The notes beneath the pieces were generated by a model. The model saw nothing but the letters and a program-made list of their open reading frames with translations. It was not told the DNA's origin and did no database searches. Shown one piece after another: positions 6,135 through 20,498 of a stretch of DNA of 58,765 bases; within the stretch, counting starts at the first letter, position 1, and each line of letters starts with the position of its first letter. Source of the stretch: an uncultured Eubacteriales bacterium. GTDB taxonomy: Bacteria; Bacillota; Clostridia; Oscillospirales; Acutalibacteraceae. The DNA is taken from assembly GCA_964634675.1 (NCBI GenBank), contig CAZWLH010000001.1:1-58765 (forward strand). Reading direction: 5' to 3'. The position numbers were made by a program, and so were the translations under genes.

Positions 6135-6914
6135 ATGCCCGAAAAAGGTAACAATTCGGTTGAGGAGCAAAGAGCACGTCAGCGTGAGTTGATAGAAATG
6201 AAGCGGCAGAAAGAGGCATTCTCCGAGGATCCCGAGCATTATACGCCTGCCGAACAGCCTGCGGCCTATGTTCAGTCGACACGCAGTAAAATCGAAAACT
6301 TTTGGTATTACAGCAAGTTTGTTATAGGGTTTATATTTATCGTTGTCCTTATTTTGACGGTCGGCATCGTTCAGTGCACCGGCAGAACCGATTACGATAT
6401 GACCGTTGTAATGTACTTCAAGACCTATGCCGACAGCACTATGTCGGAAAATCTTGCCACCGTAGCCGAGCAGTATTGCGAGGATGTGAACGGTGACGGT
6501 GCGGTAGAGGTGCTTGTGGTCAATTGCTCTATTCCCGATGATAAACGTTTGAGCGACAGTGATGCGACCAACCGATTGCTCGGTCAGTTTCAGAATGATG
6601 AAGCCATCGTTTATATCGTCGACAAGGGTGCCTATGACGACCTCAAAAACTCATTCGGCGACGATTTTCTTTATTACGGCTTAAATCTTCCCGACCTTGA
6701 AGGCGCCGCCTTTAAGCTCAACGGAACGGTGTTTGACGCGGCCTTTGACACCGTCAGTGAAAATTACACCGCCAACTTCGATTATTACTTGCTGCGCCGT
6801 AATGTTTCCGAAAAATCGACCGCAAACAAGAAAGGCGTTGCAAAGCACATTTCAAATGCCGAAAAATTCATTAAAGCCGTCATCGCAGATCCGTATCTCG
6901 ACGGTGAAAAATAA
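6135..6914 (+). CDS. Hypothetical membrane-anchored protein
   Basis: 259-aa ORF with AAAGGAA RBS, one TM helix (FVIGFIFIVVLILTVGIV) and a TTGATA-17-TACAAT promoter upstream. No family recognised. Confidence 0.6.
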   Translation: MPEKGNNSVEEQRARQRELIEMKRQKEAFSEDPEHYTPAEQPAAYVQSTRSKIENFWYYSKFVIGFIFIVVLILTVGIVQCTGRTDYDMTVVMYFKTYADSTMSENLATVAEQYCEDVNGDGAVEVLVVNCSIPDDKRLSDSDATNRLLGQFQNDEAIVYIVDKGAYDDLKNSFGDDFLYYGLNLPDLEGAAFKLNGTVFDAAFDTVSENYTANFDYYLLRRNVSEKSTANKKGVAKHISNAEKFIKAVIADPYLDGEK

Positions 6915-6950
6915 CAGTCGGTGCACCGCTTTTGCGGTGCACATATATCA

Positions 6951-7027
6951 CCGCTCGTAGCGAAGCCGGATATCGCAGCAGATTCCGATTCTGAAGGACG
7001 GGGGTTCGAATCCCTCCGAGCGGGCCA
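6951..7027 (+). tRNA. tRNA-Arg (anticodon CCG), CCA encoded
   Basis: Manual cloverleaf. The acceptor CCGCTCG/CGAGCGG has 7 perfect bp and the D stem GCGA/TCGC carries a GG loop. The anticodon loop is TT-CCG-AT. The T arm is GGGGG-TTCGAAT-CCCTC, followed by G-CCA. The C1-G72 first pair is atypical. Confidence 0.8.
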
Positions 7028-7030
7028 AAA

Positions 7031-7062
7031 TCGGCAAGCTTCGAAAGAAGCTTGCCGATTTT
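7031..7062 (+). terminator. Rho-independent terminator after tRNA-Arg
   Basis: TCGGCAAGCTTC-gaaa-GAAGCTTGCCGA perfect 12-bp stem followed by TTTT. Confidence 0.85.
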
Positions 7063-7195
7063 ACTTTTTATCTCTTCAGTTTTCTCTGCGAAGCTTGTTT
7101 ATCAGGTAATAAGTAATAGTTTATAGTGAAGAAAGATTTTGCAATGCTCTGATCAATGATTATCACCAAACACCCTCAGCGCGTGATTTAGTTAC

Positions 7196-7232
7196 AAAAA
7201 CAGCCCGAGTCGAACGAATCGACCCGGGCTGT
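7196..7232 (-). terminator. Rho-independent terminator of the 13-kb ABC operon
   Basis: 13-bp stem (CAGCCCGGGTCGA / TCGACTCGGGCTG on the minus strand) followed by TTTTT. The single non-Watson-Crick pair is G-U on the minus strand but A-C on the plus strand. Confidence 0.8.
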
Positions 7233-7243
7233 TTGCTTAATTA

Positions 7244-8650
7244 TCAGTTGTAATTCTGTCTGTCGGAGTTGAGCTTGTTGGTAACAAGTGTGTTGCAGCT
7301 GTCAACGATCTTGTTAACAGTGTTGGCGACAGAGTCAAGAGCGGTCTGAACACCTGCTGCGGGAGCAGACTTAATGGTGCTGTAGATCTTGTTCATATCC
7401 TCGCCTGCTACGGTTGCGGCAGCCTTATCAAAGTTGTGATATCTACCCTCTGCACCGAGGCTTGTGAGGTCATAGTAGAAGTTACCTGCATCGACAGTGA
7501 GGAAGGTGTTGTCAAGGTCATAATTGGCAGGGTCGAGCCAGTAACGGATGAAGTATCCTGCGGCATCGGCGTTTGGAGCCTTCTCAACAATACCGTACAT
7601 ACGAGGAATAGCGGACATCTTAGGCTTCTCGCCTTCCTCAAGAGACGGCAAATAGGTGTAACCGACATCCTCGGGATCCATATTCATAAAGTAACCTGTT
7701 GCCTTAAGTCCGTACGGTCCGCGGATAACGAGAGCGCACTTGCCGGAAGTGAAGGAGGAGAAGCTGCCGTCAAGGAGTCCCTGTTCCTTGGCATCTGCAT
7801 ACCACTGATAGCCCTCGAGCATAACCTTATCGGAGAGGCCGCTTGAGAATCTGCCGGTGTTGATGTCATACTTAACAACAGAAGTACCGAGAGAATCGAT
7901 AAAGATATCCTGTTCGACCAGCATACCCTTATAATCGGTGCCGAGCGACTTAACGTCCTTACAGCACTTAAGCGCATTGTCCCATGTCCATTTTCCCTGA
8001 GCATAGTACTCTTCGGGAGTGGTGAAGCCGTTTTCTTCAAAGAGTCTCTTGTTGTAGAAGGTAAGGTTACCGCCGGTCCAAGGAGTACCGATGGTGTTAA
8101 CCATATAAACGTTGCCTTCAATGGTGAAGCAATCGTTAAGACCGGTGTTCCAAATGGGCTCGTTGAGGTCAACGGTCGAAACTTTGTTGATGGGAGCCGC
8201 GATCTGAAGTGTTACGGGGAAGTTGCCGTCGCCTTCGTTGTTAACGAATACGTCGGGAATATCGCCGGCAGCAATCTTGGTCATAATCTGGCTGACATAG
8301 TTTTCCTGTGGAACGGTAAAGAGAGATACCTTAAGACCGGTATCATCATAGAAGCTGCTGAGCGGAACAGCACCTTCGGTGGTTGTATGATCGATCCAGG
8401 TTGCAAAACGAACTGTTGAGCCCTTAATGGAATCCGAAATTGTTGCATAGGGATCAAAGTTTTCATAACGGGTGCCTGCAGTGCTGACGGTAGGCGCAAT
8501 AACGGTCGTGGGCTTGGATTCACCCGTGCCGGTTGAAGCAACAGAACCGGTATCCTTCTTCTTTTCGTCACCGCCGCATGCGGTCATTACAAATACAAGC
8601 ATAAGTAAAGCCGCGGCTAAACACAATGCTCTTTTGATGCCGTTTTTCAT
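7244..8650 (-). CDS. ABC transporter extracellular solute-binding lipoprotein (carbohydrate, CUT1-like)
   Basis: 468 aa with signal peptide and lipobox (LVFVMTAC-GG). SBP family 1-like sequence with its own AGGAGG RBS. Confidence 0.9.
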   Translation of the reverse strand: MKNGIKRALCLAAALLMLVFVMTACGGDEKKKDTGSVASTGTGESKPTTVIAPTVSTAGTRYENFDPYATISDSIKGSTVRFATWIDHTTTEGAVPLSSFYDDTGLKVSLFTVPQENYVSQIMTKIAAGDIPDVFVNNEGDGNFPVTLQIAAPINKVSTVDLNEPIWNTGLNDCFTIEGNVYMVNTIGTPWTGGNLTFYNKRLFEENGFTTPEEYYAQGKWTWDNALKCCKDVKSLGTDYKGMLVEQDIFIDSLGTSVVKYDINTGRFSSGLSDKVMLEGYQWYADAKEQGLLDGSFSSFTSGKCALVIRGPYGLKATGYFMNMDPEDVGYTYLPSLEEGEKPKMSAIPRMYGIVEKAPNADAAGYFIRYWLDPANYDLDNTFLTVDAGNFYYDLTSLGAEGRYHNFDKAAATVAGEDMNKIYSTIKSAPAAGVQTALDSVANTVNKIVDSCNTLVTNKLNSDRQNYN

Positions 8651-8838
8651 AAAAATTCCTCCTAAAATATAATTGCAATATTACCGCAAAACCGACCCAT
8701 TTATATAATATGCACAAAATCAGGTAATAAATTGCCTAAACATATAATACAGAACAAACCGGATTGCAATAGGTTAGTGAAATTTTCCATCTAAAAAACT
8801 AAACAAATTTCAATCTGGTTTTTTAGCAATATTGACTG

Positions 8839-9846
8839 TTAGCCTGTTATACCGACACGGTCGATACTCTTAACGAACTTCTTCTGAAGTACCAAGTAAA
8901 CAATGAGTATCGGTATGATGAACATAAAGCAGCCTGCCATCATAATGGCAATTCTCAACGGGTCGCTGCCGTCGAGTCTCAAGGTACCCATAGCTTCGGG
9001 CGAGGTGATCTCGCTGAGCTTGACCGCGAGCGGCCAGCTGTCTGCATAGAGGTACATTGACGAAAGTGAATAGTCATTCCAATGCCAAATGAGCGAGAAG
9101 ACCGTTACGGTCGTAATAACAACGCCCGAGGAAGGAAGAGCAATTCTGATGTAGGTCTTGAGCGGGCCCGCACCGTCGATCCAAGCGGCCTCTTCAAGCT
9201 CCTTGGGAAGACCCTTAAAGAACTGAATGTAGATGTAAATGATGATACCCGAACGGATACCGACGCCGAGCACTGCCGGCAGATAGAATGTCCAAACGGA
9301 GTTGAGAACGTTGGGACGTATATCGATTCCGGTGAGCTTATTTATGAGTCCGAGCACGCCTAAGAAGTCGAGCTTTGAGTAGTTCATAAATATCGGCAGC
9401 ATCATCATCTGAGACGGAACGAGGATGAGAAGGAACATAAAGCCCGTCAATATCTTCTTTTCCTTGAACTCAAATCTTGCAAGTCCGTATGCAACAACAG
9501 AGCAGCTTATGATCTGAATACCGGCCGAAACCATTTCGTAAACAAGAGTATTAACGATGGCACTGCCGTATTTCATTATCGACCAGGCATACTTGAAGTT
9601 CTCAACGGTGAGGTCAGAGGTGATCCATACGATAGAGGGGTCATAGAAGGACTCTCTCGATCTGAACGCCGAGCTTATCATATAGAAAAGCGGATAAAGG
9701 ATTATGTATCCAATGGCGATAAGAACAACGTATCTAAGCAACGATACAAACACACTGTTACCCCTGCGGATAGCCTTATATCTTGTCTCGGTGCTTGCGT
9801 TTTTGAAGTTTATGACCCAATTCTTTATCTTAGTGACAATACTCAT
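8839..9846 (-). CDS. Carbohydrate ABC transporter permease (MalG-like)
   Basis: 335 aa, 6 TM, EAA-type loop (KELEEAAWIDGAGPLKTYIRIALP). Confidence 0.9.
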   Translation of the reverse strand: MSIVTKIKNWVINFKNASTETRYKAIRRGNSVFVSLLRYVVLIAIGYIILYPLFYMISSAFRSRESFYDPSIVWITSDLTVENFKYAWSIMKYGSAIVNTLVYEMVSAGIQIISCSVVAYGLARFEFKEKKILTGFMFLLILVPSQMMMLPIFMNYSKLDFLGVLGLINKLTGIDIRPNVLNSVWTFYLPAVLGVGIRSGIIIYIYIQFFKGLPKELEEAAWIDGAGPLKTYIRIALPSSGVVITTVTVFSLIWHWNDYSLSSMYLYADSWPLAVKLSEITSPEAMGTLRLDGSDPLRIAIMMAGCFMFIIPILIVYLVLQKKFVKSIDRVGITG

Positions 9847-10811
9847 CAGCTTCTACCTCCCGTATCCCAACGCTTTAAGAAAGCCTTGGAGATTATAAAC
9901 ATAAGGGCAGCCATGAATACGCCGATTACGATAAAGTAGATCCAAAGCATTGCAGATGCCTTGCCGTAGCTTTCTGCGGCACCCTGCATAAGCGTGTATG
10001 CCTGCGACATAACGATGTTATCCTTAGCAGTTACCAGCTCAACGATGGTGAAGATGATAACAAGGACAAGTGTTCTCGAAAGCATAGGAAGTGTGATGAA
10101 CCAGAACTCTTCCCACTTGGTTGCACCCTCAACCTTGGAAACCTCGTACATTGAGTCGGAGATCGACTGCATACCCGAGATAAAGAGAACTATCTGAATA
10201 CCGCAGTTCCAAATAAGGTTGAAAATGTCATTCAAAAGTCCCGTGAAGAAGGCACCGACCTTTGTCGGCAGAGCGAGCCAGGTCATAATATCCTCGACCT
10301 GGATCATATTTCCGGCAAAGGAGTCGGAAACACCGGAGGAAGAAAGCTCACTCGAGGTGGTCATAAAGAGAATCTGAATAACAACACCCGAAGCGATAAT
10401 AACGGGGAGGAAGTAAAGTCCTCTGAAGAAGATTCTGCCCTTGAACTTTTGGTTGAGCAAAAGTGCAAGAATAAGACTTATGATAACTATAACCGGCAAG
10501 GAGCCTGCCATCGAGCTCAACGATGCGAAAACGTTGTTCTGGAAATCGGCATTTTGGTTCCAAGCATAGTTGAAGTTCTTCAAGCCGGCATACTCAAAGT
10601 GGTATTCACCGCCCGAGAAGCTGACGTCGCAGAAGCCGTAATAGAACGACTGAAAAAGCGGAACCACGAAGAAGAGCAAAAGTCCGATTTCCCAATGGAG
10701 TACGAACAGGCGTCCGTAAGTGCTCTTAAGGGACTCGATACCTTTATGCTTCTTGTGCTTTTTGACGGCATTGGAGGGCGCCGTATTGGTTTTGATCTCA
10801 TCTGCTGTCAT
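9846..10811 (-). CDS. Sugar ABC transporter permease (MalF-like)
   Basis: 321 aa, polytopic, EAA-type loop (YEVSKVEGATKWEEFWFITLP). Confidence 0.9.
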   Translation of the reverse strand: MTADEIKTNTAPSNAVKKHKKHKGIESLKSTYGRLFVLHWEIGLLLFFVVPLFQSFYYGFCDVSFSGGEYHFEYAGLKNFNYAWNQNADFQNNVFASLSSMAGSLPVIVIISLILALLLNQKFKGRIFFRGLYFLPVIIASGVVIQILFMTTSSELSSSGVSDSFAGNMIQVEDIMTWLALPTKVGAFFTGLLNDIFNLIWNCGIQIVLFISGMQSISDSMYEVSKVEGATKWEEFWFITLPMLSRTLVLVIIFTIVELVTAKDNIVMSQAYTLMQGAAESYGKASAMLWIYFIVIGVFMAALMFIISKAFLKRWDTGGRS

Positions 10812-10814
10812 TAC

Positions 10815-13118
10815 TTACACCCCCTTTACCTGATAGCCGCGAGCCGCGACCGTTACATTACCGTCGGTGTAATCGGAGGTTCCGTAGTTAACATATACCG
10901 AAACTCCGTTATCGAAGGTAGTCAATCTTACATTTTCGTTGATGATCTTATGATCGGTTATCTTAGCGCCGCTGACCGAGTCAAAGTAGCTCTTATATCT
11001 GGCAACAGTGGCCTCAATATCGGTACGTACACCCTTTTCAATGGTTTCATTCCAGTAAACCGAGCCGTAGAACACATTCTGTGCGGCGGTGATGAGGTTG
11101 GTATCATACTCACCGACAAGTGTGTAGGTAAGGCCGCTGCCGCTTTCGACTGCCTTCAGAAGGGTCTCGGTCTTGTCGGTCGCAAGGTTGAGCGATGTGC
11201 CCGACATTGAAACGGCACCCTTGAAGACGATCTGATAGAACGGAACGTCGGCTGTTATGAATCTGTACTTTGAAGACTGATTGGGCGTATCATAAACATG
11301 TGTACAAAGTGCCGCCGCATAAGAGTTGGCATCGCTGCCTGCGACCTTATAACCGGAGGTCTTGTAGTTATTGATGATAGCACCGGTCTGATCGTCGGAA
11401 TTGGCTCTCGAGTAATACTGTCTGTCACTGTAATCGGAGTAAGCGATACTCGTCAGCGTGTCAAGGCTGATACCGGGGAGCTTCCAATCCTTAGCGGTCT
11501 CCTTGATATTTGCGGCAACCTCACTGAGCTTTGTGCGCGATACAAGGTAATACTCACGAAGCTTAGTGTCAGGTGTGCGAAGGCTCAACGAGAAATAGTT
11601 GAGCGCAGTGTAGCTTCCGTTAGCCGCATCGGCCTTGCCGAAGGCAGTGGAAACGCCGCCGCCCGATTCGCTGAAGCGAACCATATCAAAGTTGAAATAA
11701 AGGTTTGCGCCGTTTGAATTGCAGTACTTAATAAGTGCCGCAAGGTCGTCCTCATCACCGAATTCACTGTTGATGTCATAATCACCGGCGACGACACCGA
11801 TGTCGTTACCGTTCGAGCCGAAGCCGATGAGATTAACGTTGATGTTGTCAAGTCCGGTTCTGTTCTTGACATCCTCAACAATGGACTTGGCATCCTTAAG
11901 GGTCGTGGCGGCAAGCATCGCGGTGCTCGGAATACCGAAATGGAATTCCTTGGTCTCAATACCGCCGACAAGCTTAAGGTTGAGCAAAGAGTCATTTGAC
12001 TTTTCGGTATTGATGGCGTTGTTCTCGACAAGATAGTCACGGTAGGTCTTCGCCATACCGACATAGCTTGCCTCATCATCATAGAGAGGATAGAAGCCGA
12101 CCTTTATCTCGTCGGGAGTGAAGGCATCGGAGTAAAGCTTGGTCTTGACGATGGTCTGAGTGAAGAGGTTCTGAACGACCTCCTGATAGCCTCTGACTCT
12201 AAACTCGGTGCTGATGTATGAGTAGCCCGTGAGCTTCTGTGCGAGAGCGCCGGTGATGTAAGAATTTTCGGCACCGGATTTAATGATCGCACAAACAGCC
12301 TTGGCGCCGTTGACCGCACCGTAAACCGGCATTCTGACCGTCTCGGTGGGCATCTGATTTTCGAACTGAGTGATGTTGGCATCATGTCCGAAAACGGGAT
12401 CTTCAATGGTGATAGCCGCATCGCGGTTCTCATCCATTATCGGGTTGATAATCGCACCCGAGCCCGAAGGATAGAAGATGTAGTGGTCATCCGAGCTTGT
12501 ATTTGTGTTGGAGACCGAGCAGAAGAACGGAGCAATTATAATGCCGTAGACATTATAAGTTTCGCTTTCCTGTATTCTTGTGGGGTCAACCGAAATGTCA
12601 ACACCCTTGTCGGTCAAGGTAAAGGCAACGGGAACAGTGATCTCACGGTCGGGGAAATAACAGGTCATTTCCAAGCCATTTTCGATCTTTGTGACCGAGA
12701 AAGCCTTTTTGTTGATCGACATAGCCGAAGCGTTGGTCTGATCGGTCAAAAAGTTGGTGGTGTTGTAGTATTTTACGATGATCGGTGACTTGACAAGCGG
12801 ATGAACCGTTGCTGTTTCGCCCTTACCTTCGACCGAATAGTCGTAGGAATTGTTGAGCGACTCCTCGGGGATATAGCTCCACTCAAGGTCTTTTACCTTA
12901 TCGTAAAGGATGACCGTTGTCTTTTCAGCGTTCCAAATAAGACTGTAACGGCTGTTTTCAGCGACACTCGTTGTCTTGAGAACATCAAGCTGCTCAGGCT
13001 TCGAATAAGCCGACTCGGCAGCACGGTTAGGCTCGCCGCATCCCACTCCCAAAAGGAGGAGTGCTGAGCAAAGCAGTAAGCAAAGTGCCGATGAAATAAC
13101 GCGTTTTACTTTATTCAT
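10815..13118 (-). CDS. Large secreted lipoprotein of unknown function (possibly DUF5696-type)
   Basis: 767 aa with signal peptide and lipobox (LLLLGVGC-GE). No catalytic motif recognised. The DUF5696 suggestion is from memory of similar clusters and is not verified. Confidence 0.7.
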   Translation of the reverse strand: MNKVKRVISSALCLLLCSALLLLGVGCGEPNRAAESAYSKPEQLDVLKTTSVAENSRYSLIWNAEKTTVILYDKVKDLEWSYIPEESLNNSYDYSVEGKGETATVHPLVKSPIIVKYYNTTNFLTDQTNASAMSINKKAFSVTKIENGLEMTCYFPDREITVPVAFTLTDKGVDISVDPTRIQESETYNVYGIIIAPFFCSVSNTNTSSDDHYIFYPSGSGAIINPIMDENRDAAITIEDPVFGHDANITQFENQMPTETVRMPVYGAVNGAKAVCAIIKSGAENSYITGALAQKLTGYSYISTEFRVRGYQEVVQNLFTQTIVKTKLYSDAFTPDEIKVGFYPLYDDEASYVGMAKTYRDYLVENNAINTEKSNDSLLNLKLVGGIETKEFHFGIPSTAMLAATTLKDAKSIVEDVKNRTGLDNINVNLIGFGSNGNDIGVVAGDYDINSEFGDEDDLAALIKYCNSNGANLYFNFDMVRFSESGGGVSTAFGKADAANGSYTALNYFSLSLRTPDTKLREYYLVSRTKLSEVAANIKETAKDWKLPGISLDTLTSIAYSDYSDRQYYSRANSDDQTGAIINNYKTSGYKVAGSDANSYAAALCTHVYDTPNQSSKYRFITADVPFYQIVFKGAVSMSGTSLNLATDKTETLLKAVESGSGLTYTLVGEYDTNLITAAQNVFYGSVYWNETIEKGVRTDIEATVARYKSYFDSVSGAKITDHKIINENVRLTTFDNGVSVYVNYGTSDYTDGNVTVAARGYQVKGV

Positions 13119-13133
13119 AATTCTCCTCCTTTA

Positions 13134-15311
13134 TCAGAATAGTTTAAGAATTTCGGAATAGATAGTTGCGATGAATCCGCCGAGCTGCTGGAGCAGAATT
13201 CCGACTGCTATGAGCAGGAAGAGTATGACGGCACAACCCAAAAGTGTGAGCAAGGTGGTTCCGATGAACTTACCGAGCGTGTAATCGTGAACGATCATCG
13301 AGCCGGCGGCCAACATAATGACCGTGTACATTGTACAGATGGTAAGGAGAACCGACAGGAATGCGGCCTCATCGGGAACAAGAATGTTGGTGCAGACGAT
13401 GTAAACGACACTGCCCAAAAGTGACGGTATAAGGCTGTAGCTTATAACGGTGAGAATCTCTTTGATCTTACCCTTTCCGCCGAAGAGCGTACAAACAGCC
13501 CAGTTAGAAAGAGTCCAAAGAATGACGAGACCGGCCGTCTTGACAAGGATGAGCAATGCGTTATAGCTCGAAGGATCGAAGTAGGTGAACGCAAAGCCGC
13601 CCCAGGTCGTTTCGAGAACGTCGAAGACATAGTAAAGGAGAATAATCACAAGGCAAATGGGCACCGAGCAAAGATTCTTTTCCTTGATATCGTGGAAATT
13701 CTCGAACGGATGAGTGAGCATCGTTGTTGCCGCATGAAGCTTATCGTTCTTGACAAATCTCATCTTATGCTTGGTCGAGTAAACAAGCAACACAATAAGC
13801 CCGGCAATAAGGAGCACTGCGATGAGCAATACCCAGGTGAAGTTTTCACGCAACCACTCGGTTCTTATACTGTCGAAGGCGAGAGCATAGGTCTCACGGT
13901 CATAGCCCTGTTCCGCAAGCTCCAAAGCCTTTCTGATGTACTTCTCACCGAGAACGGGATCATCGTTGGTCTGACCCATAACGTAATAAGCCTTAGCAAG
14001 TCCGGCATAAGCGAACTGACAGTTACTGTCGGCACCGAGAACCTCTTCCCACTCTGCAACGGCATCTTCATAGTCACCGACCAAGGTCTTTGACTGAGCC
14101 GACTTAATGAGCTTACCGTGCTCGGTAATGTTGAAAACGGTGAGGGTCTGCTGGCTGTTATCGGTAACCGCAACTGCCTGAGTAAGCTTGTTATAGCTTA
14201 TCGAGCTGGGGTTATAGAAGGTACCGACCTGGTTACCGCCCTTAAGACCGCCGCCGAAGGCGGAAAGCATATTGCAGTCGTTATCATAGATATAAACACG
14301 GCCGTAATATGAGTCGATGATGTACATAAAACCGTCATCATCGGCCGCAATGCCTATAAAGTTCTGGACACGTGCGCTCTTATTTACGGGATCAAGTCCT
14401 ATCTCTTCCTCATCGAAAGAGACATCCTCGGAATCGAGAATATTGCTTCCGCCGGGATTAAGGCGCTTGACCTGCCCTTTTTGGAGAGCACTACCGGTAA
14501 CGGTATAAACGAAGCCTTCGGAATCGACCCAAAGGTCATTGAAGGTGTAAGGCAAGGAACGGGTCATCTCGGCACGCTTTTCATTATTCATAAAAAGTCG
14601 GTTCCAAAGAGCGACCAACGCCTCGGTCACGGTCTGAGCAACGTCGTTCGAGCCGTAGAAGCCGAGGAAAACATCATCAGGCGAATAAAGGATAGCGCCG
14701 TAGTAAGAACCGTTGCTGAGGATATAAACATAACCCTTATGGTCAACGGCAACCTTGATAGGCTGATACTTGAAATCGGTGGGGATAACGTGCGAATCGG
14801 GAAGAGTATAAACTCTTATGAGCTTGCCCTCTGCATCGCACTTGAGAACACGCGCGTTTTGAGTATCGGCAATGAAAACATTTTCGTACTCGTCAACGAA
14901 GATACCCTTTGCTTTGTTGAAGTAGTATCTTACGTCGTTTTCACCGGTGACATAAGAAAATCCGCCGATATTGTTGTAATCCTTATCGAGAATAATAACT
15001 CTCGAAGCACCGCCGTCCAAAACATAGGTGTAACCGGTCACATTGGACACGTGGGTATCCTCAATGGTGGAGGCCGCGGTGCAGCCGAGATCCTGCGAGG
15101 TGAAAACCTTGCCGACCTCGTACATCGGCTTTGTGGGAACTACACGGCGTGTCTGACCGGTGAAGTTTTCCCAAAAGGTGTAAGACTCATAACCGATCTC
15201 ATCGGTCTTTTCGGAAACGGCGGCGACCGACTTTCCCGAAAGAAGCATGAGAACTGCCAAGGTGCAAACGGCAATTCGGGTAAGGAGTCTGCGAATTTTA
15301 ACGTTTTTCAT
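13134..15311 (-). CDS. Signal peptide + six NHL-like beta-propeller blades + TPR + C-terminal Yip1-like 5-TM domain fusion protein
   Basis: Start set at ATG 15311 (MKNVKIRRLL, GGAGG 8 nt upstream). Repeated blade motifs include VFIADTQNARVLK, GYVYILSNGSYYG, GFVYTVTGS, GFMYIIDSYYGRVYIYD and VAVTDNSQQTLTVF. A TPR-like segment (GDYEDAVAEWEEVL...AYAGLAKAYYVMG) follows, then six hydrophobic helices. Confidence 0.7.
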   Translation of the reverse strand: MKNVKIRRLLTRIAVCTLAVLMLLSGKSVAAVSEKTDEIGYESYTFWENFTGQTRRVVPTKPMYEVGKVFTSQDLGCTAASTIEDTHVSNVTGYTYVLDGGASRVIILDKDYNNIGGFSYVTGENDVRYYFNKAKGIFVDEYENVFIADTQNARVLKCDAEGKLIRVYTLPDSHVIPTDFKYQPIKVAVDHKGYVYILSNGSYYGAILYSPDDVFLGFYGSNDVAQTVTEALVALWNRLFMNNEKRAEMTRSLPYTFNDLWVDSEGFVYTVTGSALQKGQVKRLNPGGSNILDSEDVSFDEEEIGLDPVNKSARVQNFIGIAADDDGFMYIIDSYYGRVYIYDNDCNMLSAFGGGLKGGNQVGTFYNPSSISYNKLTQAVAVTDNSQQTLTVFNITEHGKLIKSAQSKTLVGDYEDAVAEWEEVLGADSNCQFAYAGLAKAYYVMGQTNDDPVLGEKYIRKALELAEQGYDRETYALAFDSIRTEWLRENFTWVLLIAVLLIAGLIVLLVYSTKHKMRFVKNDKLHAATTMLTHPFENFHDIKEKNLCSVPICLVIILLYYVFDVLETTWGGFAFTYFDPSSYNALLILVKTAGLVILWTLSNWAVCTLFGGKGKIKEILTVISYSLIPSLLGSVVYIVCTNILVPDEAAFLSVLLTICTMYTVIMLAAGSMIVHDYTLGKFIGTTLLTLLGCAVILFLLIAVGILLQQLGGFIATIYSEILKLF

Positions 15312-15324
15312 TATTCGTTCCTCC

Positions 15325-16281
15325 TTATTCCTTAATACCGGCACTGCTCATGGATTCCATAACGTTGCTCTGCGAAATCATATAAACAACGATAGGCGGA
15401 ATCATAAGAATACAGGTAACAGCCATTGCACTACCCGAACGGGCGATACCGCCTGCGGTGATCTGTCCCATAATGGTAGGCAGCGTTTTGAGAGCCTCGC
15501 TGAAAATCGTACCGCCGGGAACTGCAGCCCAAACATCACGGAAGGTGAAAAGGACAAGTGTCAGCCACATCGGCTTGACGATCGGCATAACGATTCTCCA
15601 GAAAATTCTGAAATATCCGGCACCGTCGATCTTTGCGGCTTCAAGCAGTGCGTTGGGGAGAGCTCCCTCCATATACTGCTTCATAAGGAAGACGCCCATG
15701 GTCGAAGCGAAGTGCGGCAGGATATATACCCAATATGTATCGATAATGTTGATACCAGTATATATAATGTAACGAGGAATATCAAGTGTATATCCGTTAA
15801 AGAGAAGCGAGAACTGAATAATGTAGAAAATGGTTTTCTTGAACTTGATGTTCGACTTGCAGAGAACGAAGGCGGCCATCGAAGCAATGACAACATAGAG
15901 GAAGGTCGTTGTCAAGGTCGTGAACAAGCTGTTGAAAACGTATCTCGAAAGCGGAATACGAAGGTTGGACAAAAGCTCGGGCAATGCCGCATAGTTGGCA
16001 AGAGTCGGACGGTGAACGAAGAAGCGCGGCGGGAAGATCATAATTTCATCCAACGGCTTCAAGGATGTACAAATCGAATAGATAAGCGGCAGGATCGAAA
16101 TACAGCCTGCGGCTATGATAAAGAAGAAGTAGAAGAAGTTGCCGACCTTAGAGCGTGTATAACGCTTGGCCTCGGACTTGGACGAACGTCTGCGCTTGGG
16201 CGCTTTCATATCGTTGACCGAGTCGCGCAGTGCCTTGGCACCGCTCGGCAAAATCAGCTCTTCCTGTTTTTTTCTGAACAT
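15325..16281 (-). CDS. Carbohydrate ABC transporter permease (MalG-like)
   Basis: 318 aa, EAA loop (LLEAAKIDGAGYFRIFWRIVMP). Confidence 0.9.
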   Translation of the reverse strand: MFRKKQEELILPSGAKALRDSVNDMKAPKRRRSSKSEAKRYTRSKVGNFFYFFFIIAAGCISILPLIYSICTSLKPLDEIMIFPPRFFVHRPTLANYAALPELLSNLRIPLSRYVFNSLFTTLTTTFLYVVIASMAAFVLCKSNIKFKKTIFYIIQFSLLFNGYTLDIPRYIIYTGINIIDTYWVYILPHFASTMGVFLMKQYMEGALPNALLEAAKIDGAGYFRIFWRIVMPIVKPMWLTLVLFTFRDVWAAVPGGTIFSEALKTLPTIMGQITAGGIARSGSAMAVTCILMIPPIVVYMISQSNVMESMSSAGIKE

Positions 16282-16296
16282 TGACTTCCCACCTCC

Positions 16297-17214
16297 TTAC
16301 TTTCCTGTCATATTGAGCAGCTTACCGATGAGCAATCGGAAGACGACCATCATCAGGAACAGAATGACCGCAACAGCCGAAGCGTATCCGAGCTCATAAC
16401 GTACCGTACCGAGATCCTGCATATGAGATACTATCGTATCGGCCGCATAGCTGACACTCGGGAAACCGGCAAGCTGAATGGCGATCGCACTTATCGAAAA
16501 TGCACTCGAAATCTGCATGACCGCACTGAAAAGAAGCATATGCTTCATGGTCGGGAGGGTTATGTACCAAAGCTCCTGCCAACGGTTTCTGATACCGTCG
16601 ATAGAGCCGGCCTCATAAAGCTCCTGATTGATATTCTGAAGACCGGAAATGTTGGAAAGGAACGAAACACCCATACTCGACCAAAGCTGAACTGCAATGA
16701 CGATCGGCTTGATGTACTCGGCGGTCGAGAGCCATGTGACAGGCTCGGTGATAAGTCCGAGAGAAAGAAGCGCACTGTTAACGTAGCCGTAGCTATCGCT
16801 CGAGAAAGCGACCTGCCAAATGAAATATGCATTACCGACAAGGGCCGGAGCATAGAACATAAAGGAAAGCAGTGTACGGACAAGGGGTGAAAATTCGTTG
16901 ATGAACCATGCCAAAACGAAGGACATAAAGAATCCGACAGGTCCGCAGATTATAGCGAAGAGCATAGTGTTCTTGAAGACGACGGGGAAAACGTCGTCAT
17001 CAAGGAACATTCTTAGGTAGTTACCGAGTCCCGCAAAGGTCGGTGTGTTGATCATATCGAAGTTCGTAAAGCTCAGAACTATTGAAGAGAGAATGGGCAA
17101 TACGAGGAATATGACGAAGAAAATGAAGAACGGAGCAAGCATAATGTAGGACGGAAGCTGTTCCTGGAGCATTGCTTTGCGTCGGATCTTTTTATAATTT
17201 ATCTGATTTTCCAT
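16297..17214 (-). CDS. Sugar ABC transporter permease (MalF-like)
   Basis: 305 aa, EAA loop (LYEAGSIDGIRNRWQELWYITLP). Confidence 0.9.
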   Translation of the reverse strand: MENQINYKKIRRKAMLQEQLPSYIMLAPFFIFFVIFLVLPILSSIVLSFTNFDMINTPTFAGLGNYLRMFLDDDVFPVVFKNTMLFAIICGPVGFFMSFVLAWFINEFSPLVRTLLSFMFYAPALVGNAYFIWQVAFSSDSYGYVNSALLSLGLITEPVTWLSTAEYIKPIVIAVQLWSSMGVSFLSNISGLQNINQELYEAGSIDGIRNRWQELWYITLPTMKHMLLFSAVMQISSAFSISAIAIQLAGFPSVSYAADTIVSHMQDLGTVRYELGYASAVAVILFLMMVVFRLLIGKLLNMTGK

Positions 17215-17231
17215 TATTACTCTCTCCCTCC

Positions 17232-20200
17232 TTACTTAATTTTTGCGTATTCCGCAATCTTACGTGCAATCTCGTTGTCGGCGACCTCGCCCCACTCGAG
17301 CATTGCGTCTTTTTCGTTGTCCTCACCGTTGAGAACTGCCCAATATGCCTGGTCGATGGCACGGGATACATAGTATCCGCCGGGGAGCTCGGGGAGCTCT
17401 TCGACCTCAGACCACTGATTGAGAAGTATCTCAAGATCGTCGGCATTCCATGAATAGGAGCTGAATGCCTCGATGTTGGCGGTAGCGGTACGGGATACTG
17501 CGCCGAGGATAGACTCAACGTTGTTGTTGTATCTGAGCTGAGTATCGGCGGCGGTCCACCAGCAGAGGAACTGCCAAGCCTCATCCTTATTGGAGGAGCG
17601 CTTTACAACACCGCAACCGGTTCCCGAGCCTGCGATCGAACGGTCAATTGTTCCGTCCTCCTGCATAGTACCGGGAATAGCACATATCTTCCAACGTCCC
17701 TGAATTTCGGGAGCGGCCTGTGTCAACTGTGTATAGGTGGTGTAACCGGCAATTCCCAAAGGAGCGGTACCGGTACGGAAACGGTTATAGAAGTCGATCT
17801 GCTTCTCAATACCGTACTTGGTGTAAAGGTCTGTCCACTTGGTGAAAGCGGAAATTGCTTCACTCGATGTGAGATTGGTCTTGGTGCGTGCATCGTTATA
17901 AAGCTGAACACCGTTCTGAGTCAGGAAGGTGCCGAACAAGTGGAGACTTCCCATACCGGCGTTGACCGTAGTGGTCGAAGCGATCTTGGTATAAGGAATG
18001 TAAGCATCCATATTGTTACGCTGGAGGATGGTTGCCGCATCGAGATAATCGTCCCAGGTCCAACCGAGTCCGTTATTGGCTTCGGTAGGCTCGGCAATTC
18101 CGAGACGTTCGAAGACATCGGTACGGTAGAACATTATAAAGAAGGACTGAGTATCGGGCAAAGCGAAGAGCTGATCGTGGTCGGTGGTTCCGTCATTATA
18201 ATAATAAGGAGTGGCGGCCGACGGCTGGAAGCGCTTCAGGACGGTCTCATAATCGAGAAGATATGTCGAGCCGTCATCGACGGTGGAATACTTGGGATCC
18301 TTTGCCGCCGAGAAGTTGGTCAAATCGTAAAGTGCGCCACGCATACCGAGGTTGACCGGGTCGGTACGGTTAAGGTGCAGCGAAAGGTCGGGATAGTTAC
18401 CGGCAAGAAGACCGTTGACGAGCGAAGCGCTGACAATCTCGAGCTGAACGCCTATTCCGGTCTCATATGTGAACGAGTCCTGAATGAGGTTGCTGAGAAC
18501 CTGTGCCTGGTCACGTCCCCAGTTGACCCAAATTCTCACACTGCCCTTGGCATCTGCGGCAACCGAGCCGCCGATAGAAGTGAAGTCATCGGAGAAGGAA
18601 GCAAAGAAACGCTTGCAGCTGAAGGAAAGCGACTCACCGAAGGAGGCGGTGTTATCCTTGAAGCCCTTCGAAGGAGAAGCCAACTGCATCTGATCGATGT
18701 TGAGCGGCATGGTCTTCATTTCATAGAGCCATGAGCAAACCGTGGTGTAGTTCGAATAGTAGTCGGAAATGTAGTTCTGTGCGGTATACTGATTGTCATA
18801 CATTTCCTTCAATACACGGGCCATATTGTTAAGAGCCGAAATGTACTTACTGCTACGGTCACCCGAGAGAGCTTTCATATCGGAGGAAAGCTTCGTAAGG
18901 TCATTGTAGCAGGAAAGCAAGGTCTCCTGGAAGTTGGGTATCTGTCTGAACAGTTCATAGTCACGGTTTTTATCGGGGGAGTCACTTGTTATCATAATGA
19001 TATCCATATAGGTATCACCGATAACATCGACTATCTCGCTGAGTCTTGAATAGAACTCGGCGGTTTCACCCAAGGTGACTGTGAGGGTAAAGATATGGGT
19101 ACCGGCCTTGAGGAAGAACTTGTAAGGAGCCTTACCGCTGCCGAGCTGCTTGAACTCCCAGCTTGTGCAGTAGTCAAAACGAAGGTTCTTACACTCCTCG
19201 AAGGGCACCTCGCCGTCAATTGCAAGCGAACGGTAGGTAAAGCCGTCGATTATGGTCGCCTGCTTGTAATTAAGACCGAAGGTGTAAAGTCCGTCTTCGG
19301 GGACCGTTACCTTCCAGGTAAGGCTTTCGCCCGGAACCTGCCAGTTGGTCGAGCCGATGTAGTTGAGTATCGACTTAACGGGGCTGTGCGGTGTGATATC
19401 GGGCGAGCTGTTGTCCGACTTGGAGATAAGTGAGTTGGTAGACTTAAGCCAAGCATCCTCACCCTCGAATTCGATAGCGGTACCGGTATAATCGGCAACA
19501 CCCGAGTTGGATGCGGCATAATCCTCGTAAGAGGGGGTTGCGGTAGGTGCCTTCAGTATAATACTTGCAAGGGCGAAGGGCTCATAAACCGACTTAACAG
19601 TGATTTTGTGGGTACCTGCCGTGAGCAGAATCTTGTAGGGGTCGGCAACGACACCTACGGGGTCGACGGCATACTTGGTCACAAACTCACCGTACTCGGC
19701 CTGCTCGGGAGTGAGCTGGTTGCCGAGAGTATCAACACGGATGTTGCCGACCGGATTTTCATAGGTCGAGCCGTTGTTGACAAACATACGGGGAAGCGAC
19801 AGAGCATCAATACCGCTGTAAAGGGTCTTGCCGTCGATCATAACACCGAGCTGTATCGGGCTGGTGCTCTTCTTATCGTCGGAGTCATCTGCGTTACCGC
19901 CGGTCTTATCAAGAGGGAGATAAGTAAAGGCAAGGTTGTAGATGCCGTCCTCGGGAACGTTCACCTCATAGGTGATGCTTCCCTGCTGCTGGAAGGCTTT
20001 ATTGTCCCTCCAAACAAGACATTCCTGCGAAGTCTTCTTCTGATTGACCTCGTCGGTCAATACTTCATAAAGCTCCTTCGAGAGAACGCTTACCGTGCCG
20101 TCTGCACCGACATATTCGCAACCCTCGGCAGTGTAATTGAAGATATCCAATGCGATATCCTTTTTAGCATAGCCGTACTGTGCGATCGATGCAAGATACC

Positions 20201-20369
20201 TTTCATATTCGGCAGATGCGTCGGAGCCGGACGTTGTATTGCCCGAAGAACCCGCGGAGCCTGCGGTGTCGGGTGCCTCGGTCGCGGAAGCGACGGGCAG
20301 AGCAAAAAGCGACACGGCGAGCACGGTCACGAGAACAACGGCCAACATTCGGATTTTACCAGAATTCAT
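17232..20369 (-). CDS. Giant ABC solute-binding protein with two N-terminal CBM-like modules
   Basis: Start set at ATG 20369 (MNSGKIRMLAVVLV..., AAGGTG RBS), giving 1045 aa with a signal peptide. There are two internal repeats (see findings) and a C-terminal ~430-aa SBP family 1-like domain. Confidence 0.85.
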   Translation of the reverse strand: MNSGKIRMLAVVLVTVLAVSLFALPVASATEAPDTAGSAGSSGNTTSGSDASAEYERYLASIAQYGYAKKDIALDIFNYTAEGCEYVGADGTVSVLSKELYEVLTDEVNQKKTSQECLVWRDNKAFQQQGSITYEVNVPEDGIYNLAFTYLPLDKTGGNADDSDDKKSTSPIQLGVMIDGKTLYSGIDALSLPRMFVNNGSTYENPVGNIRVDTLGNQLTPEQAEYGEFVTKYAVDPVGVVADPYKILLTAGTHKITVKSVYEPFALASIILKAPTATPSYEDYAASNSGVADYTGTAIEFEGEDAWLKSTNSLISKSDNSSPDITPHSPVKSILNYIGSTNWQVPGESLTWKVTVPEDGLYTFGLNYKQATIIDGFTYRSLAIDGEVPFEECKNLRFDYCTSWEFKQLGSGKAPYKFFLKAGTHIFTLTVTLGETAEFYSRLSEIVDVIGDTYMDIIMITSDSPDKNRDYELFRQIPNFQETLLSCYNDLTKLSSDMKALSGDRSSKYISALNNMARVLKEMYDNQYTAQNYISDYYSNYTTVCSWLYEMKTMPLNIDQMQLASPSKGFKDNTASFGESLSFSCKRFFASFSDDFTSIGGSVAADAKGSVRIWVNWGRDQAQVLSNLIQDSFTYETGIGVQLEIVSASLVNGLLAGNYPDLSLHLNRTDPVNLGMRGALYDLTNFSAAKDPKYSTVDDGSTYLLDYETVLKRFQPSAATPYYYNDGTTDHDQLFALPDTQSFFIMFYRTDVFERLGIAEPTEANNGLGWTWDDYLDAATILQRNNMDAYIPYTKIASTTTVNAGMGSLHLFGTFLTQNGVQLYNDARTKTNLTSSEAISAFTKWTDLYTKYGIEKQIDFYNRFRTGTAPLGIAGYTTYTQLTQAAPEIQGRWKICAIPGTMQEDGTIDRSIAGSGTGCGVVKRSSNKDEAWQFLCWWTAADTQLRYNNNVESILGAVSRTATANIEAFSSYSWNADDLEILLNQWSEVEELPELPGGYYVSRAIDQAYWAVLNGEDNEKDAMLEWGEVADNEIARKIAEYAKIK

Positions 20370-20469: not shown

Positions 20470-20498
20470 ATTATCCTACAAACGCTCCGTTTTGTCAA
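20470..20498 (-). promoter_or_regulatory. Sigma-70-type promoter of the 13-kb ABC operon
   Basis: On the minus strand: TTGACA (20498-20493), 17 nt, GATAAT (20475-20470). This implies a ~95-nt leader before ATG 20369. Confidence 0.55.

Follow-up and report, generated by a model that had tools for sequence, protein, structure and literature searches.

What is a protein that joins a predicted extracellular β-propeller to a Yip1-type membrane domain doing amid the permeases of ABC importers in a gut bacterium? Human and livestock guts harbor many Oscillospirales, among them the Acutalibacteraceae and Ruminococcaceae, which degrade fiber and host glycans and for the most part have not been cultured. 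Much less is known about how glycans are captured at their Gram-positive surface than about the Sus-like systems of Bacteroidota. We examined this question for one such gene, here called gene D, in a window of 58,765 nucleotides (the whole stretch of DNA that was analyzed) from an uncultured member of the Acutalibacteraceae. Several lines of evidence indicate that its product is probably an accessory part of complex-carbohydrate capture and import in gut Clostridia.

Gene D is read on the minus strand from an ATG at 15311 that follows an AAGGAGG Shine-Dalgarno sequence. A longer form starting at a GTG at 15344 is unneeded given this strong signal, and it is also ruled out by the homologs, which begin at the equivalent methionine. 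The plus-strand open reading frames at 13692-14093, 14481-15335, and 15247-16284 overlap minus-strand genes whose products have hundreds of homologs and were therefore treated as noncoding shadows. On each side, 13 to 15 nt separate gene D from the adjacent gene. A preliminary description of the locus had claimed a fusion of a signal peptide, a six-bladed NHL-like propeller, a TPR segment, and a Yip1-like membrane domain. Pfam, PDB sequence searches, an AlphaFold2 model (pLDDT, 80.6), and Foldseek confirmed this overall architecture, and the three repeat peptides quoted in the description were all found in the gene D product (residues 145-159, 193-209, and 327-343). The parts of the protein and the neighboring genes are listed in Table 1.

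Table 1. Gene D, the parts of its product, and the surrounding cassette, in window coordinates.
Feature	Coordinates	Strand	Basis
Promoter-like site TTGACA-17-GATAAT upstream of gene A	20470..20498	-	Consensus match only
Gene A, substrate-binding protein of about 1045 aa: two CBM35-like modules, helical region, SBP domain	17232..20369	-	SBP_bac_1/8
Gene B, ABC importer permease	16297..17214	-	BPD_transp_1, above cut-off
Gene C, ABC importer permease	15325..16281	-	BPD_transp_1 23.5 bits, just below cut-off; synteny in all loci
Gene D, 725-aa protein: signal peptide, NHL propeller, TPR-like segment, TM1, Yip1 domain	13134..15311	-	ORF and domain matches
Sec-type signal peptide, gene D residues 1-31	15219..15311	-	Hydropathy; model helix 4-27
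Six-bladed NHL-type β-propeller, gene D residues 40-395	14127..15194	-	Pfam, PDB search, model, Foldseek, repeat layout
Four helices forming two TPR-like hairpins, gene D residues 396-470	13902..14126	-	Model; weak HMM matches
Stalk helix continuous with TM1 (491-513), gene D residues 471-514	13770..13901	-	Model, hydropathy
Basic cytoplasmic loop with conserved HPF...K.K motif, gene D residues 515-547	13671..13769	-	7 K+R
Five-TM Yip1 domain, gene D residues 548-725	13137..13670	-	PF04893 and model
Gene E, 767-aa DUF5696 lipoprotein	10815..13118	-	PF18952, E 9e-128
Gene F, ABC importer permease	9846..10811	-	BPD_transp_1 23.7 bits, just below cut-off; synteny
Gene G, ABC importer permease	8839..9846	-	BPD_transp_1 E 1.2e-12, above cut-off; synteny
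Gene H, 468-aa lipoprotein substrate-binding protein	7244..8650	-	SBP_bac_1/8; lipobox MTAC/GG
Palindromic hairpin, 16-bp stem, between convergent genes	7027..7062		Sequence

Hydropathy bears out the signal peptide at the N terminus of the gene D product, which has a basic n-region, a hydrophobic core, a predicted cleavage site at SVAA/VS, and no lipobox; in the model, its helix is followed by a low-confidence linker. Only 5 of 81 homologs carry a lipobox-like motif. The six repeats with an NHL pattern were laid out at residues 78-398, and the model shows six blades of four strands each; between blades 3 and 4 lies a helical insertion (residues 222-254) modeled with low confidence. The most conserved stretch, residues 176-225, lies in blade 3. 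PDB sequence searches matched the NHL domains of Thin, PknD, TRIM2, and TRIM71 (E 4e-7 to 1e-5), and Foldseek aligned the modeled propeller with the six-bladed NHL domains of Thin, TRIM71, and TRIM2 at E 5e-16, with target-normalized TM-scores of 0.78 to 0.81. In Pfam, the propeller matches SGL (30.1 bits; cut-off, 26.3) and SdiA-regulated (24.1 bits; cut-off, 21), both clan relatives of NHL (clan CL0186). Through fold, PDB, and clan matches, the NHL-type assignment is thus significant; NHL itself (PF01436), however, stays below threshold in the gene D product (15.5 bits; cut-off, 20), and relatives reach up to 52 bits.

The segment described as TPR-like fared less evenly. Four helices are modeled at residues 397-411, 414-427, 432-448, and 452-468, and one relative (P0304) matches TPR_19 at 26.8 bits, above the cut-off of 25. 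In gene D itself, however, HMM support is weak (TPR_19, E 0.054, 14.3 bits), as are matches to designed TPR proteins in the PDB (E 0.1 to 0.8). The TPR assignment for gene D is therefore a weak one that relies on family-level evidence.

Family members of about 900 to 1030 aa bear additional ectodomain insertions. A CBM4/22-like insert was suspected in these larger relatives, and Pfam gave it no support, finding no CBM in their insertions.

Following the hairpins, the stalk and TM1 form a single modeled helix (residues 472-514). TM1 has a hydropathy peak of 3.08 and runs from outside to inside, leading into a basic loop in which H534, P535, F539, K543, and K545 are conserved. This loop is also the split site in some relatives, and stand-alone Yip1 proteins begin there. 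The Yip1 family PF04893 matches residues 531-698 significantly (E 2e-14, 54.2 bits; cut-off, 28.6) over profile positions 3-170 of 173, a membership that is at the domain level only, and a precomputed Yip1 hit accompanies all 120 homologs listed. In the model, the five helices of the domain span residues 550-569, 585-609, 616-643, 646-675, and 679-724. Hydropathy and the model together thus uphold the proposed succession of a TM helix, a basic loop, and five more TM helices.

Which side of the membrane does the propeller face? In the predicted topology, the cytoplasmic loops hold 11 lysine and arginine residues and the outside loops hold 1, in keeping with the positive-inside rule, and the cytoplasmic parts are only loops of at most 36 residues. 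Because of the signal peptide, this 11:1 bias, and split relatives whose NHL-TPR protein stops just past the single TM1 helix with a basic tail, the propeller and the TPR-like hairpins are predicted to be extracellular, carried by a helical stalk that passes into TM1. The extracellular placement of the propeller given in the preliminary description is supported to the same degree.

The operon map places gene D between two permease pairs, as had been claimed, within a cassette of eight genes. A substrate-binding protein and two BPD_transp_1 permeases are present twice (genes A, B, and C and genes F, G, and H), so that the cassette encodes two binding-protein-dependent importers. The start of gene A, at MNSGK, was set by comparison with homologs; its product has a Sec signal and no lipobox, and a lipobox-like motif is present in 4 of 75 gene A homologs and absent from the other 71. 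By comparison, 41 of 43 gene H homologs and at least 47 of 78 gene E homologs have a lipobox. Across loci, the permease encoded by gene B is 59 to 91% identical. The promoter-like site upstream of gene A agrees with the consensus at 11 of 12 positions, the best match in the region, and the hairpin downstream of gene H is likely a bidirectional terminator that closes the operon. Gene D is predicted from the sequence to be cotranscribed with the other seven cassette genes in a fixed order. No ABC_tran protein occurs among the open reading frames of at least 200 aa in the 58.7-kb window, and no ABC ATPase gene occurs in the cassettes of relatives either. Presumably, the importers share an ATPase whose gene lies elsewhere; the absence of one here fits with a shared enzyme of the MsmX/MsmK type.

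Relatives of the Yip1 part form 1,316 clusters at 50% identity, and the gene D protein occurs in at least 390 species-level genomes, with nearly all of the 80 loci listed belonging to Acutalibacteraceae/Oscillospiraceae-type gut MAGs. The preliminary description called the fusion unusual. It is indeed uncharacterized, and the source names of the family clusters are "hypothetical protein" throughout, with no functional name; nevertheless, it is not rare, for most members of this large family in gut Oscillospirales have this form. Its suggestion that gene D acts with the flanking permeases is strongly supported by gene order: A-B-C-D-E-F-G(-H) recurs in 85 of 85 related loci, with gene D identity down to 39%. 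Departures from this order fall mostly at contig ends, and the rest reflect gene H below the detection threshold. Around cassettes elsewhere are genes for GH16, GH36, GH38, and GH78 enzymes, dockerin-bearing proteins, and AraC regulators.

Additional evidence comes from loci in which gene D is divided. In L086, L087, and L088, two abutting genes within the same cassette encode a 488- to 499-aa NHL(+TPR)-TM1 protein and a 204- to 214-aa Yip1 protein, and even in the rearranged L087, the NHL, Yip1, and DUF5696 genes remain contiguous. Separate but abutting genes for the two parts constitute Rosetta-stone evidence that both work together. Moreover, the two halves are under comparable constraint, since distant relatives are 45% identical in the propeller and 48% in the Yip1 part.

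Some genomes carry the cassette two or three times. In such MAGs, the gene D copies are 42 to 55% identical to each other, compared with 45 to 54% for the large substrate-binding protein (gene A) and 57 to 73% for permeases B and C. Such per-cassette divergence speaks for a dedicated, coevolving partner and against a general factor. Distance-matrix correlations with the shared signal removed gave the highest values for the D ectodomain with the N-terminal part of A (0.28 to 0.37) and, among the highest, with E (0.28 to 0.30), while the D membrane part correlated best with the SBP domain of A (0.37) and with B (0.31); this mirror-tree grouping is confounded by rate classes (extracellular versus membrane) and is thus suggestive and of little weight.

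We consider the downstream DUF5696 gene, and not the permeases alone, to be the closest genetic partner of gene D. The model of its product (pLDDT, 89.7) consists of a β-sandwich, a TIM barrel, and a second β-sandwich, and Foldseek matched it to ZgGH129 (5opq; E 1.4e-33) and NagBb (5wzn; E 1e-25; TM-score, 0.72 to 0.74) and then to GH101, GH36, and GH31. C27 is conserved among homologs, and in the barrel region, the acidic residues D478, D562, D624, and E658 are invariant or nearly so. This model thus predicts for DUF5696 the fold of GH129/GH101 α-glycosidases. Single-sequence and profile searches of the PDB, however, returned nothing significant, neither GH129 nor GH101; gene E therefore does not group with GH129 by sequence, and what it shares with GH129 and GH101 is a predicted three-domain fold, at the fold level only. 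Our literature search found nothing on DUF5696 (PF18952).

How do known systems compare? The literature that we searched held no description of the gene D family or of a propeller-TPR-Yip1 cassette and, on bacterial Yip1 proteins, only YknW and gene-cluster mentions. In Bacillus subtilis, the Yip1-family protein YknW is reported to touch the permease as well as an extracellular partner and thereby to modulate how the YknXYZ ABC transporter complex assembles (PMC4887032). YknW and D are both bacterial, polytopic Yip1 membrane proteins encoded in ABC-transporter operons, and neither is itself an ABC component; the link of D to its transporters is a genetic one. However, YknW lacks an ectodomain and partners with a MacB-type exporter and a membrane-fusion protein, whereas D has about 470 extracellular residues and sits between two type I sugar importers. 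Eukaryotic Yip1/YIPF proteins bind Rab GTPases and take part in trafficking between the ER and the Golgi (for a review, see PMC6682643). They share with D the family PF04893 and a predicted layout of a cytoplasmic N-terminal segment, five TM helices, and a C terminus on the far side; D differs in having a large ectodomain and one more TM helix ahead of the domain. To our knowledge, the Rab GTPase and vesicle-trafficking partners of Yip1 are absent from bacteria.

The propellers of TRIM71, TRIM2, Brat, Thin, and PknD share the six-bladed fold with D. Those of Brat and TRIM71 are intracellular RNA-binding domains of eukaryotes, whereas the propeller of D is predicted to be extracellular. As a whole, the cassette resembles Gram-positive CUT1-type loci in its SBP_bac_1/8 proteins, MalF/G-type permeases, and surface glycosidase-like lipoprotein and, in relatives, in its AraC regulators and secreted GH16, GH36, and GH38 enzymes. 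Nevertheless, the literature that we searched describes no such Gram-positive locus with a propeller-TPR-Yip1 protein, with DUF5696, or with a fixed order of eight genes that includes two importers.

We propose that gene D encodes an accessory or scaffold subunit that is specific to its cassette and belongs to a twin ABC importer of glycans, a reading that we hold to be evenly poised between right and wrong. The context is one of glycan use, as evidenced by the CBM35-like modules of A and the GH129/GH101/GH36/GH31-like fold of E. The glycan-uptake machine would be a Gram-positive one made of two complete binding-protein-dependent ABC importers. The Yip1 bundle would pack sideways against the transmembrane domains of the permeases, as YknW, the one bacterial Yip1 protein known to have been studied, does with the YknYZ transporter and its extracellular partner YknX, and the TPR/NHL ectodomain would serve as a docking platform above the membrane, holding the large substrate-binding protein, the DUF5696 enzyme, and/or the glycan chain beside both importers. 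The large substrate-binding protein would be a candidate for such tethering, as it appears to have no lipid anchor, unlike E and H, the other two exported proteins. As a result, the capture, trimming, and import of one glycan could be physically coupled.

Other roles for the propeller must be weighed against this proposal. D could be a surface glycan-binding protein, with a lectin-like propeller and a Yip1 part that is a mere anchor making no transporter contact, much as SusE/F-type or SGBP proteins capture polysaccharide at the surface in Bacteroidota. The predicted extracellular location, the glycan-use context, the additional insertions of the larger family members, and the divergence of D between paralogous cassettes, which is about that of the CBM-bearing substrate-binding protein and is expected of a specificity determinant, are all consistent with this role. 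Yet one TM helix suffices as an anchor, and the split NHL proteins already have one; a five-TM Yip1 gene nonetheless always adjoins the split NHL gene, and the Yip1 part is conserved at least as strongly as the propeller. Considering also that no CBM or lectin family in Pfam matches the propeller or the insertions, we find this role unlikely. A catalytic role, in which the propeller modifies the substrate before import as a lactonase-, lyase-, or esterase-like enzyme, is the least probable of the readings considered here. Enzymes of such kinds occur in the six-bladed SGL/strictosidine-synthase/PAL superfamily, and the match to SGL (SMP-30/gluconolactonase) exceeds its cut-off; however, it is limited to residues 133-175, about one blade, and is typical of cross-matching within a clan. 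Likewise, NCBIfam searches with D, E, and A gave as their sole match a partial one in D to ScyF, an NHL protein of scytonemin biosynthesis (E 5e-17), but its 62 bits are far from the cut-off of 350. Each blade has invariant Asp residues, but these are part of the structural NHL "h-x-h-D" motif, and the top structural matches are noncatalytic NHL binding domains. We also know of no CAZyme family with the fold type of this propeller.

Alternatively, D might be a sensor of extracellular glycan that gates or regulates the importers, or an assembly or quality control factor that aids the insertion or assembly of permeases and lipoproteins, rather than a stable subunit. The sensor domain of PknD, matched at E 6e-7, is likewise an extracytoplasmic NHL propeller tethered by a TM helix. 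PknD, however, couples its propeller to a cytoplasmic kinase, whereas D, with its short cytoplasmic loops, has no output domain, and a sensor function is judged unlikely for this reason despite the match. Moreover, the cassettes contain no kinase or response regulator, and their regulators, where present, are AraC/cupin-type proteins of the cytoplasm, which would respond to sugar after its import. An assembly function finds a precedent in YknW, reported to modulate complex assembly (PMC4887032); against this, the presence of one D per cassette speaks against a general assembly factor. Taken together, we regard a sensory or assembly role as distinctly improbable.

The scaffold proposal itself faces counterpoints. 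The signal peptide of gene A might remain uncleaved and act as an anchor, making a tether needless, and the analogy to YknW crosses from an exporter to importers. Also, NHL propellers in related superfamilies can bind small ligands or be catalytic, and the best Pfam match within the propeller of D is to the lactonase-type SGL family. A bolder version of the scaffold proposal, in which D is the organizing center of a "utilisome," with Yip1 bridging both importers and the TPR/NHL part tethering A and E, seems to us rather doubtful, if still worth entertaining. In such a single stable complex, one polysaccharide chain would be captured, cut, and fed to two transporters.

Understanding this cassette would matter for two uncharacterized proteins at once, DUF5696 and the propeller-TPR-Yip1 protein. 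Should D act as a scaffold that links an enzyme and binding proteins to two importers, then it would represent a new type of ABC-importer subunit. The bacterial Yip1 domain would gain a concrete job, and DUF5696 would be a candidate for a new family of glycoside hydrolases. Should the "utilisome" version hold, D would define a new class of accessory subunit, and its Yip1 domain would have a first molecular role in nutrient uptake.

Sequence and structural analysis bore out the central features of the gene D protein. Reading the minus strand mechanically gives an ORF at 13134-15344 that starts at GTG, and the ATG at 15311, with AAGGAGG upstream at the right spacing, yields the 725-aa protein, in which every peptide quoted in the preliminary description is found. 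At the domain level, this protein is a member of the Yip1 and NHL-propeller families. The claimed Yip1 domain is recognized by Pfam at residues 531-698 (E 2e-14; 54.2 bits, cut-off 28.6), and the claimed NHL-type repeats can be laid out as six units within residues 78-398, with a pattern approximating h-x-h-D...G-x-h-Y-h-h-D. The propeller region passes the Pfam cut-offs for SGL (30.1 bits, cut-off 26.3) and SdiA-regulated (24.1 bits, cut-off 21), and NHL itself reaches 15.5 bits, under its cut-off of 20. A PDB sequence search matched the propeller to the NHL domains of Thin, PknD, TRIM2, and TRIM71 (E 4e-7 to 6e-5). Moreover, in the AlphaFold2 model (49 homologues as input; mean pLDDT 80.6), the signal peptide is an N-terminal helix, the propeller has six blades of four strands each and an insertion at 222-254 modeled with low confidence, residues 397-468 fold into four helices paired as two hairpins, and a single long helix (472-514) turns into TM1, followed by five further transmembrane (TM) helices. 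Foldseek aligned the model with six-bladed NHL domains at E 5e-16 and target-normalized TM-scores of 0.78-0.81. The proposed combination of propeller, TPR-like segment, and Yip1 holds overall, with the TPR label as its weakest element: gene D matches TPR_19 only weakly (E 0.054), and relatives pass the Pfam cut-offs for both TPR_19 (26.8 bits) and NHL (52 bits).

Three independent lines of evidence predict that the propeller is extracellular, as had been proposed. The N-terminus carries a Sec-type signal without a lipobox; lysine and arginine total 11 in the predicted cytoplasmic loops versus 1 in the predicted outside loops; and in split relatives, the NHL-TPR protein ends in a stalk, one TM helix, and a short basic tail, and the next gene opens with the cytoplasmic loop's conserved HPF motif. 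It follows from this topology that the Yip1 part would be laid out like eukaryotic Yip1 proteins, with the N-terminus in, five TM helices, and the C-terminus out.

The genetic setting of gene D is a cassette of eight tightly packed minus-strand genes, separated by 3-17 nt or overlapping, except for 188 nt ahead of gene H. As the preliminary description stated, gene D sits between two permease pairs, B/C before it and, beyond E, F/G after it. The best promoter-like site of the region lies directly upstream of gene A, and a 16-bp palindromic hairpin follows gene H. No ABC ATPase was found among the scanned window ORFs of at least 200 aa, and the genes on either side of the cassette, FeoB and an M18 aminopeptidase among them, have unrelated housekeeping roles.

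Features of the window, with protein identities between paralogous cassettes of one same MAG (SBP, substrate-binding protein)
Feature	Product	Coordinates	Strand	Remark	Paralogue identity
Gene A	Big SBP, ~1045 aa	17232-20369	-	First in cassette	45-54%
Genes B, C	Permeases		-	Between A and D	57-73%
Gene D	NHL/TPR-like/Yip1 protein, 725 aa	13134-15311	-	Fourth in cassette	42-55%
Gene E	DUF5696 protein, 767 aa	10815-13118	-	PF18952, E 9e-128	34-45%
Gene F	Permease		-	After E	38-53%
Gene G	Permease		-	After E	47-61%
Gene H	Lipoprotein SBP		-	Last in cassette	32-35%
ORF	247 aa	53693-54436	+	No Pfam match
DUF624	Membrane protein	54436-55248	+	After the 247-aa ORF
ORF	230-286 aa	6135-6914	+	No Pfam match at thresholds used
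ORF	230-286 aa	2130-2846	-	No Pfam match at thresholds used
ORF	230-286 aa	30916-31776	-	No Pfam match at thresholds used
ORF	230-286 aa	43980-44672	-	No Pfam match at thresholds used

The family is large. Clustering at 90% leaves at least 788 relatives of the full-length protein, of which the best 120 matches listed are all 700-774 aa long, all with Yip1 and most with precomputed NHL matches; none of these 120 bears a functional name, and the source-database entries looked up always read "hypothetical protein." With the Yip1 part alone as the query, 1,316 clusters at 50% identity were retrieved at E <= 1e-3 and 866 at E <= 1e-10; the best matches are mostly 690-740 aa, some reach ~820-1030 aa, and ~15-20 of the best 150 are short. 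Five relatives of ~900-1030 aa (P0263, P0304, P0316, P0368, and P0377) have big ectodomain insertions or an added N-terminal region, in which a Pfam search recognized no family. Scanning one genome per GTDB species by two peptide patterns, a procedure that gives a lower bound, confirmed at least 390 gene D loci. Nearly all of the 80 that were kept are in MAGs of ruminant, human, or other gut origin that bear the label Acutalibacteraceae, Oscillospiraceae, Ruminococcaceae, or Clostridia, and several MAGs hold two to three gene D copies. Also, tblastn of the eight window proteins recovered the order A-B-C-D-E-F-G(-H) in 85/85 loci; most departures are explained by truncation at contig ends, and in the others gene H scored too low to be detected. 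The Pfam-labelled gene calls of L001, L004, and L005 bear out this order.

Stand-alone Yip1 proteins (204-214 aa) are complete genes. In loci L086 and L088, a 494-499-aa NHL(+TPR) gene abuts the Yip1 gene, and DUF5696 follows, in the same twin-importer cassette. In L087, where the NHL protein has 488 aa, the cassette is rearranged, yet NHL, Yip1, and DUF5696 are contiguous. Given these split neighbors, the window fusion therefore joins two proteins that are kept adjacent elsewhere, a Rosetta-stone relationship. DUF5696 is the tightest genetic partner of the NHL/Yip1 pair. The L087 cassette (6882-19835) runs SBP, NHL, Yip1, DUF5696, two permeases, big SBP, and two permeases; its NHL and Yip1 genes are separate but overlap. 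The cassette adjoins a 1208-aa protein that faintly matches ricin-B lectin, as well as Big_2/FIVAR surface proteins.

The DUF5696 protein, gene E, was modeled confidently (pLDDT 89.7, pTM 0.89) as a TIM barrel between an N-terminal and a C-terminal beta-sandwich. It has no detectable sequence similarity to any solved structure in the PDB. Foldseek ranked GH129 first (ZgGH129, 5opq, E 1.4e-33; the alpha-N-acetylgalactosaminidase NagBb, ~1e-25, TM-score 0.72-0.74), followed by GH101, GH36, and GH31. C27, in a lipobox-like context, and the acidic barrel-region residues D478, D562, D624, and E658 are fully or almost fully conserved across homologues. Fold, C27, and acidic residues together make DUF5696 a candidate lipoprotein glycosidase and, judging from the model, a candidate new glycoside hydrolase family. 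Gene A comprises two N-terminal CBM35-like modules, a helical region, and an SBP domain; a profile search matched the CBM35 of 5x7g (E 2e-5), and Pfam CBM_35 matches 6/18 homologues. Elsewhere, the cassette neighbors GH16, GH36, GH38, and GH78 enzymes, with dockerin or Listeria-Bacteroides repeats on some of the GH16 proteins, as well as AraC-type regulators and a CE2-like esterase that Pfam matches weakly. These partner domains and neighbors therefore point to glycan utilization. Dockerin-bearing proteins flank several cassettes, including a GH16-dockerin fusion (L040 13894-16803, L050 3116-5107, and others), and cellulosome-like "mucinolysomes" have been described in genomes first labelled Acutalibacteraceae (2025 preprint, 10.1101/2025.10.14.682383).

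Among distant relatives of gene D, the propeller (45% identity) and the Yip1 part (48%) are under similar constraint, and conservation peaks in blade 3 (residues 176-225). The paralogue identities (see the table) indicate that gene D co-diverges with its own cassette; by this sequence measure, its behavior is that of the extracellular parts, which presumably bear specificity, and not that of a shared general factor. Several MAGs hold the whole cassette in two to three diverged copies (L034/L040/L045, L041/L043/L074, L075/L082, L052/L080, and others), which suggests that the paralogous cassettes serve different substrates. After removal of the common signal in a mirror-tree analysis, the gene D ectodomain groups with the gene A N-terminal region and E, and the membrane part groups with the gene A SBP domain and permease B; this hints weakly at the partners of gene D, because rate classes could give the same pattern.

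The tools or their predictions directly give the domain composition and outside topology of gene D, its place in the operon, the strict synteny, the fused and split forms, and the glycan-related partners, and from genomic context and one analogy we infer a mechanism. We propose, with confidence about evenly balanced, that gene D is an accessory or scaffold subunit of the cassette. Its Yip1 bundle would touch the permease transmembrane domains, and its TPR/NHL ectodomain, built from typical macromolecule-binding modules, would serve as a platform on which the big SBP, the DUF5696 enzyme, and/or glycan dock. Gene D may thereby tether gene A, whose Sec signal is of the ordinary kind, with an AxA-type site and no lipobox; lipobox-like motifs occur in 4/75 gene A homologues versus 41/43 for H and at least 47/78 for E. 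With its lipid anchor missing, gene A would have a concrete and testable need for a tether.

Gene D might instead be purely a surface glycan-binding protein anchored by Yip1, but the five-TM Yip1 gene is retained also in relatives whose NHL protein already carries a TM helix, and we consider this unlikely. A sensor or transient assembly factor is more doubtful still; as a sensor, gene D would have to act without any cytoplasmic output domain. That the propeller is itself catalytic seems highly improbable. The closest working likeness to the accessory or scaffold subunit is YknW, the only studied bacterial Yip1 protein and an accessory of the YknXYZ ABC transporter, which reportedly modulates assembly by contacting both the permease and YknX, its extracellular partner (PMC4887032). 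Like YknW, gene D would be a non-ABC membrane accessory of an ABC system; it differs by its large ectodomain and its association with importers.

Other parts of the window also drew attention. DUF624 is a YesL-like integral membrane family, frequent in sugar ABC operons, and the window's DUF624 protein may be another uncharacterized accessory membrane protein. Cumulative GC skew peaks near 20 kb with a minimum at ~36-44 kb, and the genes change orientation at ~36.3-36.5 kb, from mnmE (-) to lepA (+). With yidC, jag, mnmG, mnmE, and parB present, a replication origin may lie within the window; dnaA was not noticed.

Overall, the cassette resembles Gram-positive polysaccharide utilization loci, but it has two importers, a Yip1 protein, DUF5696, and a fixed arrangement. 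A literature search found no paper on the gene D architecture, DUF5696, or the cassette. The gene D architecture is real, widespread, uncharacterized, and experimentally tractable.
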